64,000 nt of DNA from Escherichia coli. GTDB lineage: Bacteria; Pseudomonadota; Gammaproteobacteria; Enterobacterales; Enterobacteriaceae. The stretch lies in assembly GCF_011045215.1 (NCBI RefSeq), contig NZ_CP049201.1; one strand, written 5' to 3'. Of this stretch, positions 41,572 through 63,421 are shown piece after piece. How positions within the stretch are numbered: position 1 is the first letter of the stretch; each line of letters opens with the position of its first letter. Position numbers and translations under genes: made by a program. The notes beneath the pieces were generated by a model, which was not told where the DNA came from, ran no database searches, and saw only the letters and a list, made by a program, of their open reading frames with translations.

Positions 41572-42195
41572 TCACATTTCCTGGTTAGGTTTACGGGTGG
41601 TTCCCCCGCTGTCGCCAGGGTGATCATGAGTATTATAAATTTCGCGAATTTTACTCATGCTGCCGGTTTTATCGGTGATCTCCTGTGAGGCACCGATATT
41701 GCCCAGAACCTGCGTATCGGCATTAATCTTCGTTTCTCCCTGCACAGTCAGGGTATCCGTGATTTCCACCGGACCGTCCAGCGTTCCCCTGCCGGTGATT
41801 TTATAGCTGCCGCTTTCAGCCAGCGTGATGGACAGGGCATTGGCTTTACGGTCGTAACGGATTTCCGTTCCGGTATCAAACAAAATAACATGCTCGTGTT
41901 CACTGCCCGCCGGTACAGGAATGGCGTCAATATTCGCCCCCGGATACACACGACCGTTACGCAGATCGCCCGCCTCCGATATCACCGTGACCGCATCTCC
42001 TGGTGCCGGGTAATTACTGACCTGCATGTAACGCCCGGACTGCATCTGAATCCAGGGCAACGGCGGCGAAAGCACATCTCCGATATCCACCCGAACCATC
42101 ACCGGGTTACCCGGGATCACCTCTTCCACCACGCCGCGACGGATCATGTCCGCCACCCTGCGGCGTAACTCTGCCACTTCATCCGCCAGACTCAT
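41572..42195 (-). CDS. Baseplate spike protein V (P2 gpV-like)
   Basis: ORF track 41572..42354; start taken at MSLADEVAELRRRV (ATG 42195); C-terminus HDHPGDSGGTT as in P2 V. Confidence 0.8.
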   Translation of the reverse strand: MSLADEVAELRRRVADMIRRGVVEEVIPGNPVMVRVDIGDVLSPPLPWIQMQSGRYMQVSNYPAPGDAVTVISEAGDLRNGRVYPGANIDAIPVPAGSEHEHVILFDTGTEIRYDRKANALSITLAESGSYKITGRGTLDGPVEITDTLTVQGETKINADTQVLGNIGASQEITDKTGSMSKIREIYNTHDHPGDSGGTTRKPNQEM

Positions 42196-42339
42196 CGCCG
42201 GTGCCCTCCGCTTTCCAGATAAGACGATAATCCTGCACATGCTTTTTACCGGTTTCCGGTACTTTACCCAGCCAGACTTCCTGTAACGGCACACCTGCCG
42301 GAGCCGCAAACGGATCTTCGCCGACCGGAATGTCCTGTT
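42179..42339 (-). pseudogene. 3' fragment of a tail-completion gene (P2 gpS-like position), separated from its 5' part by the inserted element
   Basis: Open frame ...FSFEQDIPVGEDPFAAPAGVPLQEVWLGKVPETGKKHVQDYRLIWKAEGTGDESGG-stop with no upstream start (in-frame stop at 42398-42400); ATGA overlap with gene V. Confidence 0.55.
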
Positions 42340-42348
42340 CAAAAGAGA
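42340..42348. repeat. Left copy of 9-bp direct repeat CAAAAGAGA (putative att core)
   Basis: Identical 9-mer at 53493-53501; both copies sit in the same reading frame of the split gene. Confidence 0.5.
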
Positions 42349-42760
42349 AAGCAAACAAACAAGATAATAAGTTGAATTTAAAGGAATAAAAAAGGCATCA
42401 TTTTTGCTTTTGGTACAAATTCTAGTCCGTATAAACGCGGAAAAATCCGCTAAATTAAGATAAAAAAGATGCTTAGATAGTTACTATGTTTAGCTTCATG
42501 GCTACGGGGAGTAAGTTTGCTCTTTGCTTAATCTCGGTTATGGAAATCCCCATATCGGCATCATGCCCACCAGCGTGACGCATTTTTTTTAATTTCGCGG
42601 GTATAAAAATTTGACGAGGCGGGCGGTCCCATAAGCAATGGGGTGTAGGGATTCCGATCCCCCTGGGGGGGGTATTAAACACCCACCCTATTTAAATACC
42701 GTCTTTTTTGTCACTGTGTGTCACTGGTTGTCACTCTCCGTCACGGTATGCCACCATAAG

Positions 42761-43075
42761 TTAACGTCGTAACCGCTCCGGCTTCTTCCAGTGGTAAGTA
42801 ATTTTTTCTTTCTCCTGGTACATCTGCACGCGGCGACGGTATGACAACATCTCCAGAACTCTGGTGCGTATATTGCGCATATCCACGCCGTTAAGCTCAA
42901 TACCGTCACGGCGCATCACCTCAGCCACCACACGCGCGTAATTTTCGGCTATCACGCTGTCCGGCTGCGTGGCCTCCTGTTTGCCTGCTGGTGGTCTGAT
43001 TCCGGCAGCACGGCGAATCATTTTGAGCATTTCGGCTTCGGTCATTGTCATGGCCTCCGTGGTGATGGAAAACAA
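42761..43075 (-). CDS. Hypothetical protein downstream of element terS
   Basis: 104-aa ORF, no recognised motif; start uncertain (Met at 43075, 43051 or 43045). Confidence 0.4.
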   Translation of the reverse strand: MFSITTEAMTMTEAEMLKMIRRAAGIRPPAGKQEATQPDSVIAENYARVVAEVMRRDGIELNGVDMRNIRTRVLEMLSYRRRVQMYQEKEKITYHWKKPERLRR

Positions 43076-43310
43076 TGCCGTAATTGTGGCGGGTCCTTCC
43101 TGGAAAATGAAACACCGGGGGTGGCCATACGCGCAATTCTTAACTGTTTATGAAAATTTTTCGGGAAAAGTCAGATCCGTTCTTCTTCTCTGTAACTCAT
43201 TGTTTAATGGTAAAATCATCAAAAAAAGAAAGGATCTGGCAGTGGTCATTCTGGGCCCAAAATGACGTTATCAGATCCTTTCTCAGTTTTGTTCAATAAT
43301 TGCGCGGTTG

Positions 43311-43895
43311 TCACTCAGCTCTCTGTTGCCGTAACTTCTCCGGCACGTTTCCGGTTGTTTCCATCAGATAATCTTCCAGAATGCGGGGCAGGTTATCGGC
43401 AGTTTTAGCGCACGCATTACAGGCGCGTGCTGTTTCCCTCCTCAGGCCATCGATCATTGCCGGAGTCATCGCGGGAAACTGCCTTTGCATCGTAAGGGGC
43501 AAGCTATTCATGATGGTTGAAATCTGTTGCGCCAGTTTAGACAGTGCATACATACAAAAGCCGGTATCTATAACCTCTCCTGTCTCCCTGGCGTTCTTCA
43601 GTTCCTGCCCGTCAGCCTGTGCTTTAGTGAGACGGTATCGTTCGTACTCTGTTGTGCCTGGCTGTAAATCTGATTCACCAACGGCACGTAAATCATCAAG
43701 CTCACTGCGGAGTTTTTCTTTTTCGATCTCCTTCTCCCTCTGTACATACCATTCGATCACCTGTGAAGAGTCGAAAGTCACCTCCATACCTTTTCCGCCA
43801 CCAGATACATGGGGGAGCCCTTGCATCTGCCAACGTTCAATTGTGCGCGGATCAACACCGAAAATCTCTGCCAGTCTCTTTTTGTTAACATTCAT
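43311..43895 (-). CDS. Terminase small subunit, lambda Nu1-like (element copy)
   Basis: N-terminus MNVNKKRLAEIFGVDPRTIERWQMQGLPHVSGGGKGMEV resembles recalled lambda Nu1 winged HTH; C-terminal half similar to the prophage TerS at 62051..62560. Confidence 0.8.
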   Translation of the reverse strand: MNVNKKRLAEIFGVDPRTIERWQMQGLPHVSGGGKGMEVTFDSSQVIEWYVQREKEIEKEKLRSELDDLRAVGESDLQPGTTEYERYRLTKAQADGQELKNARETGEVIDTGFCMYALSKLAQQISTIMNSLPLTMQRQFPAMTPAMIDGLRRETARACNACAKTADNLPRILEDYLMETTGNVPEKLRQQRAE

Positions 43896-44039
43896 TTATC
43901 AAATCCTCATCAAAAACCACCTCCGACATGAAACGCCTGAAAAACGGGATTTTCCGGCGTTATGGTGTCGTATGTTTATTATAGTTAATTTAAATAAAAA
44001 CATAATGTTACATGCAAGAAGTACCGACATGCTTTTTCC

Positions 44040-44115
44040 CTGAAAAATTTTCATAAATAGTGAAAATCTGCGCGTCTGCCGCCCCGCGGTGTTTCTGATT
44101 CTGGAAAGGACCCGT
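44040..44115. other. Lambda-like cos site of the element
   Basis: GAAAAATTTTCATAAATAG ... GCGCGTCTGCCGCCCCGCGG ... GGAAAGGACCCG; reverse complement resembles the lambda cos junction (CGCTATTTATGAAAATTTTCC, GGGCGGCGACCT, GGGTCCTTTCC); about 185 bp upstream of terS. Confidence 0.6.
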
Positions 44116-44194
44116 GAAAATTGGGGCGATCACCACCGTTCCGGATACAAAAAAAATCGCGAGACCTTGCCAGCCTCGCGAACGTTCATTTCAG

Positions 44195-44620
44195 TTACTT
44201 AACAGACAGCAACAGCTTTTCATCTTCGGTCAGTCCGGCGTTGCCATCACCGGCTGCTGGCCCAACACATTTCGGGCTGTGCTTTTCCATGTACGCTTCA
44301 AACAGAAAAGCCGTTTTCTTTTCCTGCATCATTGCCTGGGCATCCACGGCAGCCAGTAACGTTTGTGCATAGGTTACTGTCATTACTTCAGAACCACACT
44401 CAATCAGCTTACTGGTGAACTCAGGGTATTTTGATGCCAGCGGTAACGCCTTGATACCCTCTATGCGCTGTTTATCACTCTCAGCCTTTGCAGTAAGCAC
44501 CGTTCGGGCTTCTGTCAGTGATGCGCCATTATTTGCGAGATTTTCCGCAAGCGTCGGGTATTTCTGCGCCTCAGGCAGTGCCATGATCAATGCTCTGGTT
44601 GAATTTGCTTTCTCAGTCAT
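44195..44620 (-). CDS. Hypothetical head-module protein (possible scaffold)
   Basis: 141-aa ORF between decoration-like gene and cos; no recognised motif. Confidence 0.45.
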   Translation of the reverse strand: MTEKANSTRALIMALPEAQKYPTLAENLANNGASLTEARTVLTAKAESDKQRIEGIKALPLASKYPEFTSKLIECGSEVMTVTYAQTLLAAVDAQAMMQEKKTAFLFEAYMEKHSPKCVGPAAGDGNAGLTEDEKLLLSVK

Positions 44621-47165: not shown

Positions 47166-47370
47166 TTCTCACTATTCCCCACTTTTTCGCCTCACTTTTT
47201 AAGCTCCCAACATGATTTCCAACCTTGTTTTTTTGTGATTCTAATATGTTGTTTTTCAATGTGTTTTTTATTCCTCACTTTTGAGCCTATATACAGGTTG
47301 AAAAGTGAGGGGCGCGGTTGCTTTTTGTTCAGTTTCTGCTATCCCCTCACTTTTGTGCCTCACTTTTTAC
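47165..47370. repeat. Iteron array with AT-rich core (candidate replication origin of the element)
   Basis: CTCACTTTT at 47191, 47274, 47346, 47361 and inverted AAAAGTGAGG at 47301, flanking an AT-rich stretch (47225-47275), directly downstream of the helicase gene. Confidence 0.55.
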
Positions 47371-52086: not shown

Positions 52087-53319
52087 TCACATATTCACTA
52101 CTTTTAGCCCCTGATGACCACCAGAACGACGGATAATTCCCTTTCTGGCATCATCAACAAAATCACCAATCCATTGCATCATGATCTTACGTTGCTCAAA
52201 ATATTTTGAGCGATTATAAATATCACGAATAGCATCGCCGCTTTTATGGGCTAATGCTGCCTCAATAACATCTGGGTTAAACCCTTCTTCGTTGAGTAAC
52301 GTACTCCACATAGCCCGGAATCCGTGGGCAGTTGCAATACCATAAAATTGTCCATCTTTGAAACACTTATGACGCAACACGCTTGATATAGCTTTCCCCG
52401 GATTCTTTGGAGAAAAAAATATATAGCTACCACATTTTATTTTATTCATTTCATTTAAAATATCCACGGCTTGCCGTGAAAGCGGAACTACGTGTTCACG
52501 TCCACACTTCATTCTTTCAGGGGGAATTGTCCAGATACAATTTTCTAAATCAATTTCCTCCCATTTTGCCTCCCTTGCTTCACATGGTCGTACCATAGTG
52601 AAAATCTGGAACAAAAGAGAGCATCTTATAGAGATATTACTTGTAGTATCCCACCAGTTCAAAAATTCTGATAACAGTTCAACTGGTAATGCCTTTAATG
52701 GGGTATGTTTTTTTGTTGCAAATGCATTTCTTATTGTTGATAGCGGGTTATTTTTAATTACTCCAGAGTTAACACAGTAATTCATTATTTCATTAATTTT
52801 TGAAATAATTTTATCCAATACAGAATTACGATCAGAAAATTGATTAAGCAATGGTATGACCACAGGCGCGGTCATATCATGTATGTACACATTTCCAAAT
52901 ACAGGGATTATATGTCTGTTCAATAACTCTTCTATTGTCTGTAAAGTCGACAGTCGCAAATCACCTTTTTTCTTAAAATTAAACCATTCAATTGCAATAG
53001 CACCAAACGTCTGTAAGTGCTTTCTTTTAGCCTCGAGTCGTTTTTCTGCCCGGTATGATAACGGATCTATATCCCGTGCCAACAATCTGCGCAGATTATC
53101 GCGTTCTTCTCTGGCTTCAACCAGCGTGAAATCGGGGTATCGCCCTATAGTGTATGTTTGCCGCTTCTTCGTAAAAGGTTGTACATAACGAAAACGCCAC
53201 GATTTACTACCGGCTTTTGACACATAAAGCAAAAGCCCAAACCCATCATATAGAGCGTAATCTTTCTCTCGTGGCCTGGCGCTTTTTACCTCTGATGCAG
53301 TAAGAGGCTTCACCGACAT
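52087..53319 (-). CDS. Tyrosine recombinase, P4-type integrase
   Basis: ORF track 52087..53418; start taken at MSVKPLTASEVKSARPREKDYALYDGFGLLLYVSKAGSKSWRFRY (ATG 53319); C-terminal catalytic region with HGFR and Y. Confidence 0.85.
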   Translation of the reverse strand: MSVKPLTASEVKSARPREKDYALYDGFGLLLYVSKAGSKSWRFRYVQPFTKKRQTYTIGRYPDFTLVEAREERDNLRRLLARDIDPLSYRAEKRLEAKRKHLQTFGAIAIEWFNFKKKGDLRLSTLQTIEELLNRHIIPVFGNVYIHDMTAPVVIPLLNQFSDRNSVLDKIISKINEIMNYCVNSGVIKNNPLSTIRNAFATKKHTPLKALPVELLSEFLNWWDTTSNISIRCSLLFQIFTMVRPCEAREAKWEEIDLENCIWTIPPERMKCGREHVVPLSRQAVDILNEMNKIKCGSYIFFSPKNPGKAISSVLRHKCFKDGQFYGIATAHGFRAMWSTLLNEEGFNPDVIEAALAHKSGDAIRDIYNRSKYFEQRKIMMQWIGDFVDDARKGIIRRSGGHQGLKVVNM

Positions 53320-53492
53320 ACAAGCACTCCAATACAAATTTTTTCTAGTCCATGCGCTGGTTCCTTTTGCCAGAATACTGGCGATAAAAAAGCGAAAAAC
53401 AAGGAACAATGCACACAATGAAAAAACCGCAACTTATTGAATAAGAAGAAAAACAAAAAGAAACGGTAACGAAAGATAATGATTGCATAGTC

Positions 53493-53501
53493 CAAAAGAG
53501 A
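53493..53501. repeat. Right copy of 9-bp direct repeat CAAAAGAGA (putative att core)
   Basis: Identical to 42340-42348; about 170 bp from the integrase start. Confidence 0.5.
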
Positions 53502-62560: not shown

Positions 62561-62699
62561 ACACCCTCTTTAGCTGTTCACTTTACACTCAACTCCGTTT
62601 TTGCCGCTATTTTCCCACAAACTGGTCGGACTTCCGGTTTTCTTGATAACTAAAAACAATATAATCAATTGGTTAGATAATTAAAAAACCGGAAGTGGA

Positions 62700-62776
62700 A
62701 CTCGAAAAATTTTCATAAATAGCGCGTTTTTGCGCGTCCTACGACCCCCGGTGTTTCAGATTCCGGAAAGGACCCG
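62700..62776. other. Lambda-like cos site of the prophage
   Basis: CTCGAAAAATTTTCATAAATAGCGCG ... GCGCGTCCTACGACCCCCGG ... GGAAAGGACCCG; reverse complement parallels the lambda cos junction; about 180 bp upstream of Nu1-like gene. Confidence 0.65.
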
Positions 62777-63421
62777 CGCAAATGAGAGCATTTATCATTA
62801 ACATTTACAGATAAGATGACGTACATCATTGCAACGCCATTCAGCCATATACCTGTGGCATTCGTTGTTGCACTCCGTAACCCTGCGACTAAAGTTGAAA
62901 GCATGGCCATCTTTTGCCACCGGCAAATCTTCAATGGATTTCCCCTGCCGGTTTTTTATTTTCGTCGATGCATAACATTGCATTTACATCAATACCGTCT
63001 ATTGTCATAAGTATGTTGTACCGATGCTCGGGTGATATTGGCGGTCTTCGCCAGCCGGTTCTGTGTAGCTGCTCCCTGTGACCGGTTTTTTATTTCTCAC
63101 ATTATCGCAGCCCCTCACTGAAGGGCTGCTGTAATGCCTGTTACTCACAAATCAAACGAACATGCTGACCACTCATTTCAATGCGTAAGTATTGTGGCTT
63201 GCCGTCAATCAACGCGGTGATTAACTTGTCACCTGTAGGTTTCCACATAATTTTCTCCTGTTTTAATGCCCCTTGCCGCCGGGCAGTTGATCAAAGTTCA
63301 TCTTGATTCGACAAGATTTAGAATGAATAAGATAAAATTGGCACAAGCAGCAGAATTTCATGCTTTCTGGACGCTGGCGCACCCTTCATTTTTCAGCAAA
63401 ATATTCTGCTCTTACAGGCGA

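Follow-up and report, generated by a model that had tools for sequence, protein, structure and literature searches.

The closest described relatives of the 11.15-kb element that interrupts a prophage in the 64,000-nucleotide stretch of Escherichia coli DNA analysed here (contig NZ_CP049201.1; hereafter the window) are the helper-embedded phage-inducible chromosomal islands (HE-PICIs), which are likewise 11 kb long, run in the order int-alpA-Bro-replication-late, and interrupt a late gene of a prophage in co-orientation and without replacement sequence (Tommasini, Mageeney and Williams 2023, PMC10111431). Two further kinds of known system resemble parts of its late end. One is cos piracy, in which satellites such as P4, SaPIbov5, and EcCICFT073 carry a helper-type cohesive-end site (cos), more than one per element; EcCICFT073 carries two lambda-like cos sites, and the described satellites have cos sites of a single type each (PMC6092414, PMC6739421). 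The other is the replication origin inside an initiator gene, such as ori-lambda in gene O, with at least four direct repeats in helical phase and a short core. The oriL of phage SPP1, in gene 38 (replisome organizer), is likewise a case of origin iterons inside an initiator gene. Supplied in trans on a plasmid, ori-lambda iterons silence rep-lambda phages of the same initiator specificity (Hayes et al. 2012, PMC3349717).

The element in the window is a satellite of the HE-PICI type of Tommasini et al. (PMC10111431), and its late end carries, in non-coding DNA, an array of direct repeats resembling the iterons of phage initiator genes and, beside it, a third and very probable cos site (cos3) of a type unrelated to lambda. 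All three kinds of system, HE-PICIs, cos piracy, and iterons within an initiator gene, have been described before, and the combination with cos3 and the orphan array are variants thereof; in the literature on these satellites, we found no description of a phiP27-type cos beside a lambda-type cos in one satellite, nor of an orphan helper-type iteron array at a satellite late end. The array belongs to a conserved 90-bp module, designated M1a (42673-42755), which consists of the array and an A-tract:

42709 to 42755, plus strand: five-unit array with core (T)GTCAC, unit starts at 42710, 42720, 42730, 42740, and 42750, the last decayed to GCCAC
42673 to 42709, no strand assigned: A-tract and moderately AT-rich segment of M1a, TATTAAACACCCACCCTATTTAAATACCGTCTTTTTT, kept with the array in all type-A relatives, about 60% A+T

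An earlier, sequence-only reading of this DNA had pointed to three TGTCACT repeats, and across this stretch the window reads ...ccgtcTTTTTTGTCACTGTGTGTCACTGGTTGTCACTCTCCGTCACGGTATGCCACCATAAg.... The three repeats were confirmed at 42709-42715, 42719-42725, and 42729-42735, and the array proved to be longer, continuing with GTCACG at 42740 (fourth unit) and the degenerate GCCACC at 42750 (fifth unit); in nearly all relatives the fifth unit is GTCACC. The units are spaced at exactly 10 bp, a period of 10 was also returned by Tandem Repeats Finder, and GTCAC-N5-GTCAC-N5-GTCAC has three overlapping matches in the window, compared with 0.01 expected from shuffled sequences. The array begins 6 nt past the stop codon of the last late gene, within 412 non-coding bp that separate this codon from the left attachment (att) core. 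The description of this stretch as about 400 bp of non-coding DNA was thus accurate, as the core ends at 42348, the first element gene ends at 42761, and the sole open reading frame (ORF) between the two (42473-42682, 69 aa, GTG start) had no family match.

42340 to 42348, no strand assigned: left att core CAAAAGAGA, the left satellite boundary, given by the empty site in strain C5
42761 to 43051, minus strand: ORF96, 96 aa, last gene of the satellite late zone, a member of phrog_1561 (a family of unknown function)

Related loci, 85 in all, were collected with ORF96. Most have five units, and the variants with four are shorter by exactly 10 bp, so that the phase is kept. In the sense of ORF96, the module reads in most relatives TAA-CTTRTG-GTGAC ATAC CGTGAC GGAG AGTGAC AACC AGTGAC ACAC AGTGAC AAAAAA GACGGTATTTAAATAGGGTGGGTGTTTAATACC, with cores that are identical across the five units and spacers that have diverged. 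The identity of M1a was 95.5-98.9% in elements between which the adjacent ORF96 gene shows 90.5-97.9% nucleotide identity; that is, the non-coding module is conserved at least as well as the neighbouring gene. The occurrence of the array was independent of the types of Int, AlpA, TerS, and RepA among the related loci, and an association test over 62 related loci revealed no satellite gene family specific to array carriers, the strongest signal being the absence of a PerC-like 104-aa family. In other relatives, the same place is taken by unrelated modules that start right at the ORF96 stop codon and have repeats of their own. ORF96 itself was considered as the binding partner of the array and rejected, because its sequence, including the C-terminus, is unchanged whichever module follows. 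The protein has more than 1000 close homologues and no Pfam domain; no relative was found in PDB and no phage homologue by tblastn, and its AlphaFold model was poor (predicted local distance difference test score, 56.6).

An unbiased scan, in which viral contigs were searched for four GTGAC spaced 10 bp apart, yielded at least 118 new loci, and the counts that follow cover the loci listed. Eleven were satellite arrays beside ORF96. An ORF spans the whole array in 65 of the 118, always on the GTCAC-sense strand, and the 63 distinct array ORFs among the listed matches had hits to phrog_3729 (31 ORFs), phrog_1408 (24), phrog_1032 (19), and a DnaD-like loader family (17), all of which are replication-initiation families. 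The GTCAC core and the 10-bp period of the satellite array recur inside initiator genes of the replisome-organizer type in many phages. One such gene, whose product has a DnaT domain, is followed by a lambda P-like gene in the prophage of strain SA53-3 that hosts a sister satellite. It contains two arrays, the first reading TGTCACGAAA TGTCACGACA TGTCACGGCG TGTCACTACG ... and the second TGTCACGACG AGTCACGCATA TGTCACGACA TGTCACGACG AGTCACGACA, and the N-terminal domain of initiators of this type is annotated as replication protein O or replisome organizer in phage records. The same two-array arrangement was found in the TUM9812 prophage, which carries in its TerL gene a sister satellite with a 95%-identical integrase; both host prophages are of the PPompW type, with TGTCAC arrays inside the initiator gene. 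A run of 17 nt, TGTCACGGCGTGTCACT, is common to one satellite array variant and the SA53-3 helper array, a length reached by 23 of 1000 controls in which cores were kept and spacers were permuted.

Like origin iterons, the array comprises at least four direct repeats with a common core in helical phase (five units at 10 bp). The sequence-only reading had allowed for a regulator-binding array; the array does look like a set of protein-binding iterons, but the likely binder would be a helper initiator rather than a satellite regulator. On the similarity and distribution described above, we tentatively read the array as orphan iterons for a helper initiator, the likeliest of the interpretations, at somewhat less than an even chance, its binding and effect being conjectural. 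M1a would then be bound in trans by the replication initiator of the helper phage, with its five (T)GTCAC units, spaced exactly 10 bp apart and facing the same side of the helix, as the initiator-binding row. A hidden Markov model of the initiator family, run against the six-frame translation of the window, found no member, so any protein that binds the array would have to come in trans. Two outcomes could be envisaged. In the first, the initiator and the P-type helicase loader of the helper would fire replication of satellite DNA from M1a. In the second, M1a would act by titration of the initiator and so dampen replication of the helper, like ori-lambda iterons carried on a plasmid (PMC3349717). 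That inhibition is the model for the proposed decoy mode, although it also needs oop transcription and belongs to a laboratory construct rather than to a natural satellite.

Several observations weigh against the iteron interpretation. Unlike iterons within initiator genes, the satellite array is an orphan, neither in nor next to an initiator gene and lacking one in cis; it lies beside the last late gene, and its flanking bases depart from the helper consensus. The extended consensus of the helpers, TGTCACGAC, and the TGTCACT of the window have only TGTCAC in common, iteron positions +5 to +7 (GAC in helpers) are not shared by the window units, and exact matches between the window haplotype and a helper reach 8 nt at most. 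Beside the array are an A6 tract and TATTTAAATA, in a segment whose A+T content of about 60% is weak for a DNA-unwinding element. A core unit is mutated in the window and another in the relative L001, and the strong conservation of M1a may stem from recent recombinational spread rather than selection. Furthermore, the satellite has a RepA helicase and CCTCACTTTT iterons of its own and hence does not obviously require another origin. As 47% of E. coli genomes carry initiators of this type, their presence in two host prophages is weak evidence; the early region of the window's own prophage lies outside the window.

Alternatively, the array could be an inert relic, either a fragment of initiator-gene iterons captured by the recombination-prone late end or a 10-bp minisatellite made by slippage, carried along with ORF96. 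PICI late zones capture helper DNA (PMC10111431), and the region is a mosaic of swapped modules; the variation between four and five units, the mutated core units in the window and L001, and the 17-nt identity to a helper array all fit such an origin. However, M1a is at least as conserved as ORF96 across elements with differing integrases, terminases, and replicases, the array core has been kept while the spacers diverged, and neither flanking homology to initiator genes nor an initiator-family ORF in the six-frame translation of the window was detected. We consider a relic unlikely.

The repeats had also been proposed as arm-type sites of the integrase; as such, they would be comparable to the three contiguous P' arm sites of lambda. 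The features concerned are as follows:

53492 to 53500, no strand assigned: right att core CAAAAGAGA, the right copy
52087 to 53319, minus strand: satellite tyrosine integrase, P4 type, with an Arm-DNA-bind_3 domain
42414 to 42430, plus strand: candidate integrase or accessory arm site TACAAATTCTAGTCC, 70-77 bp from the core, a putative assignment

The consensus of the lambda P' arm sites contains GTCACT, and the GTCACT core with three contiguous 10-bp units is reminiscent of P'1-P'3; moreover, the satellite integrase has an arm-binding domain. The proposal nevertheless failed on distance, the missing right-end copy, the presence of other repeats at arm positions, and the association with unrelated integrases. 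The array starts 366 bp from the core centre, whereas arm sites typically lie within about 150-200 bp, and the 180 bp that separate the int start from the right core contain no GTCAC. The expected arm positions are occupied by TACAAATTCTAGTCC and its direct repeat at 53333-53353, on the int-proximal arm, which place TACAAATT..TTCTAGTCC on both att arms, 70-77 and 152-163 bp from the core; GATAAAAAAG is likewise common to both arms. The same array accompanies integrases that are 100% and 95% identical to that of the window (L001 and L003), an integrase of about 44% identity at the yejO site (L004), and integrases of only 21-25% identity (L007, L014, L023, L032, and L064), that is, at least three unrelated integrases, and it occurs at yejO and other att sites; its carriers are with or without AlpA, TerS, and this RepA type. 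An arm-site role for the array is thus most improbable, and we infer TACAAATT..TTCTAGTCC to be the better arm candidates. In contrast to published HE-PICIs, the attP of this element does not contain the doubled motif TGTATTGC, and has TACAAATT..TTCTAGTCC instead. Beside the integrase gene of the SA53-3 host prophage, at the ompW-int junction (L205, 1222-1255), there are three phased CTCTGCAAAA repeats, which are probably the arm-type sites of the helper integrase. These arm-like repeats are not GTCAC, and a role of the array as arm sites for the helper integrase was ruled out, as no GTCAC was found at the prophage ends.

The stretch 42560-43080 was compared with phage records by BLAST. The region 42586-42653 was 87% identical to the annotated cos of the Stx2e phage phiP27, and the first 115 bp of several Burkholderia phage records were also matched. 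The following features were delineated:

42586 to 42660, minus strand: cos3, of the phiP27/SfI/SfII/ST64B type (HK97-like, HNH-dependent terminase), by homology to phage cos sites and termini
42615 to 42624, no strand assigned: predicted 10-nt cohesive-end segment GAGGCGGGCG, aligned with the annotated phiP27 cos-site GGGGCGGGCG
42628 to 42661, no strand assigned: two small hairpins in cos3, CCCAT-n5-ATGGG and GGGAT-n4-ATCCC, DNA fold of -7.7 kcal/mol, z = -2.6
42567 to 42574, minus strand: Chi site GCTGGTGG, about 40 bp beyond the predicted cos3 cut

The homology to the cos of these phages, which encode HNH, TerS (small terminase), and TerL (large terminase), extends over about 75 bp. The equivalent region of the sister satellite L005 was 90-93% identical to the ends of SfII, ST64B, SfI, and related phages. 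The phiP27 cos site has the HNH endonuclease gene on one side and the TerS gene on the other, and in the phages this cos is flanked by TerS or HNH genes. A multiple alignment of cos3 with the phages revealed an invariant core, G..GC.GGC.GTCC, and a conserved TTTCGCGGGTRTAAAAA on the side of TerS. It is precisely with the column of the phiP27 cos-site (aligned GGGGCGGGCA) that the right end of the SfI record begins, so the end position agrees as well. The A-tract bound by HK97 TerS is situated 15-29 bp downstream of the cut (PMC11331095); a conserved A/T-rich segment, TTTCGCGGGTATAAAAATTTGAC, lies on the corresponding side and, by analogy, may serve as the TerS site in this subfamily. The hairpin stems are kept among relatives with varying loops (UCCG, UUCG, AGAA, and CGAA), and these two hairpins were the only structures of significant stability when RNA and DNA were folded on both strands. 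A cos3-like sequence was found in 26 of the 60 related loci with enough downstream DNA and, within 520 bp, in 18 of the 19 array carriers.

The satellite differs from the phages in having neither HNH nor TerL, and its TerS is of the lambda type (Nu1). In addition, the distal C-rich arm of the phage cos, TTTGACCCGCCCCTCCCC, has been replaced, which speaks against the assignment, and the Chi site, conserved in L004, L005, and L016 and absent from the phage cos regions, has been added. On the homology as a whole, we regard 42586-42660 as very probably a cos site of the phiP27/SfI/SfII/ST64B kind, at which cleavage is predicted, and packaging from it would proceed toward lower window coordinates. 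Judged by the same alignments, cos3 is a copy from a second, unrelated phage family. It would let phages of the phiP27/SfI family, or capsid-forming PICIs with such a terminase, package the satellite, a route on top of the two lambda-type cos sites described below. In this respect, the element differs from the cos piracy satellites, as two lambda-type sites are joined here by a third of the unrelated HK97/phiP27 type.

At the boundary of cos3 and the array module lies a GC palindrome, which the sequence-only reading had given as a C6-TG-G7 hairpin:

42659 to 42672, no strand assigned: C5-T-G8 palindrome at the junction of two modules, from the phage cos alignment and the L016-type insertion

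The palindrome exists, although it was misread by one base; it is C5-T-G8, ATCCCCCTGGGGGGGGTAT, spans 42657-42675, and has CCCCCTGGGGG (42659-42669) as its core. A single copy of CCCCCNGGGGG is present in the window, compared with 0.02 expected, and the hairpin has only -5.6 kcal/mol, no better than shuffled sequences. On the window plus strand, the C-run aligns with the place of the C-rich distal arm of the phage cos (CCCGCCCCTCCCC), and the G-run is the end of the array module; the run lengths among relatives are C4G7, C5G6, C5AG5, and C6AG5. The L016-type relatives are capsid-forming PICIs that have HK97-type TerS and TerL of their own, followed by ORF96, the array, and cos3. In these, a 360-bp insertion between array and cos3 falls exactly between the C-run and the G-run, and each half stays with its own module. 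Since the C-run belongs to cos3 and the G-run to the neighbouring module, the palindrome is best read, on these alignments, as a seam between cos3 and M1a and not as a functional unit of its own. The insertion itself (L016, 7290-7640) contains three copies of GCGGGTTAT, an AT-rich stretch, and three inverted copies of ATAACCCGC, an origin-like architecture. The suggestion of a packaging-related structure applies to the left half of the stretch (42586-42660, including the C-run of the palindrome) and not to the array half.

The proximity of the array to cos3 raises the possibility that it is an accessory of the packaging site, for example a docking row for terminase, HNH, or a host bending protein that slows the motor and aids termination, situated 85-135 bp away on the side packaged last. 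The co-occurrence in 18 of 19 array carriers is consistent with this, as is the fact that some terminases bind phased short repeats, such as the P1 pac hexamers and SPP1 pacL. However, phages with this cos have no such array and carry the HNH gene there instead, the binding site of HK97 TerS lies across the cut, and array and cos3 are parted by the 360 bp in the L016-type elements. Moreover, each occurs without the other: cos3 is present without the array in L005 and L072, and L050 has an array variant without detectable cos3. An accessory role is quite improbable in our judgement. That the late end carries two independent cis-acting modules, cos3 and the M1a iterons, has an even chance of being correct in our estimate.

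A role at the RNA level was also weighed, with the stretch as the 3'-untranslated region or terminator of the late TerS-ORF96 transcript or as part of a small RNA on the opposite strand. The start of the array 6 nt past the ORF96 stop codon would suit a transcript end; the L016-type elements have an AT hairpin followed by CCCCCCG-T8, which is terminator-like, and on the plus strand of the window GGTATT..AATACC is followed by a T-run. On the other hand, neither a terminator nor a promoter was called at the array or palindrome (42650-42760), an Rfam scan of 42000-44400 gave chance-level hits only and no match at E <= 10, and the fold energies were no better than those of shuffles (z = -1.2 and -0.3). 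We regard this as very unlikely.

A broader proposal, which we consider possible but doubtful, is that the late end of enterobacterial PICI-type satellites holds a cassette of piracy sites acting in trans on helper functions besides the capsid, in which the orphan iteron array, by capture or titration of the helper initiator, and the third cos allow two helper lineages, lambda-type and HK97/phiP27-type, to replicate or package the satellite or to be interfered with. Roughly 200 of the 5,426 complete genomes, Shiga-toxin strains among them, have an array-bearing satellite. If the proposal is true, the range of helpers and the interference shown by these widespread E. coli satellites would depend in part on small non-coding cassettes, besides proteins such as Rpp or TerS, and an initiator-binding decoy would take the conflict between satellite and helper to a new level, that of replication initiation. 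A cos of a second family would explain how near-identical satellites move between hosts with different prophages. For annotation, the origins within a large family of phage initiator genes are marked by GTCAC arrays of 10-bp period, and the phiP27-type cos can be recognised by sequence in satellites.

Counting cos3, the element has three cos-like sites, the other two of which flank its TerS gene:

43077 to 43290, plus strand: cos2, lambda-like (cosQ-cosN-cosB), with R-type repeats CAGATCC(G)TTCT, inverted relative to cos1
43311 to 43895, minus strand: satellite small terminase, Nu1 family (Pfam Phage_Nu1, E = 2e-68)
43900 to 44127, minus strand: cos1, lambda-like, upstream of the satellite TerS

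We take 43077-43290 to be a lambda-type cos from comparison with the lambda cos sequence. The inverted sites cos1 and cos2 are 75% complementary over 93 nt, and each has its own cosN and cosB repeats; the cos of the helper prophage (about 62640-62780, minus strand) differs from both. Other end modules were seen among the relatives. In L050 (and L006, L038, L040, and others), up to six tandem units of about 50 bp lie 0-400 bp downstream of ORF96, each consisting of TAACCCGTTGATATTYYCGG, a variable hairpin (often ...CAAAATTG...), and GCTGG(TGG); such units fill the end region where the GTGAC array does not directly follow ORF96. When the alternative module of the L005 type was compared with phages by BLAST, only its cos part was matched. 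The founding HE-PICI, 11capE (strain NRG857c; L207, 23536-25252), is without ORF96 and has a DUF262-HEPN pair, likely defence cargo, at its late end instead of ORF96, array, and cos3.

The window consists of E. coli DNA with the order trp operon, ompW, and prophage, syntenic with strain SA53-3. The prophage, with a lambda-like head and a P2-like tail, was found uninterrupted in 76 genomes by a search with the two flanks joined, and strain C5, whose flanks are 99.8% identical, provided the empty site from which the junctions were fixed. The satellite genes all lie on the minus strand and encode the P4-type integrase, AlpA, a Bro-N protein, a RepA helicase, SSB, lambda E-like and D-like capsid proteins, a scaffold-like 141-aa protein, the Nu1-family TerS, and ORF96. 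The insertion target is a 183-aa gene of this P2-like-tailed prophage, located between the head-tail joining gene and baseplate V and upstream of the latter, unlike the targets of the published HE-PICIs. As this gene has no lambda cognate, the site may be an HE-PICI site outside the 14 published. The sister element with the 95%-identical integrase lies in a prophage TerL gene (L003, 14001-14010 and about 24600), where the overlap is GATGTG in place of AAAGAG and the arms are otherwise near-identical. The SA53-3 prophage that hosts a sister satellite is related to 'PPompW' phages in GenBank and carries stx2a and subtilase cytotoxin genes (L205, 19445-24743); a satellite interrupting the late genes of this toxin prophage could affect toxin-phage production.

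Just downstream of the RepA helicase gene, at 47177-47360, there are at least four CCTCACTTTT-type repeats and an inverted copy, presumably the origin that belongs to the satellite itself. The 11-mer GGTTGTCACTC is present both in the array (42726-42736) and at the TerS stop codon, bordering cos2 (43306-43316), which may be chance. Finally, Chi sites (GCTGGTGG) number 10 in the 11.15-kb satellite, compared with one in about 24 kb of flanking prophage, an excess that suggests Chi-based protection of a satellite without Gam. They lie at 42567, 46881, 47618, 50856, and 51083 on the minus strand and at 42987, 46855, 48848, 49643, and 51182 on the plus strand. The plus-strand site at 42987 is about 120 bp from the cosN of cos2, on the RecBCD entry side, and the end region of related loci likewise has a Chi site after the hairpins.

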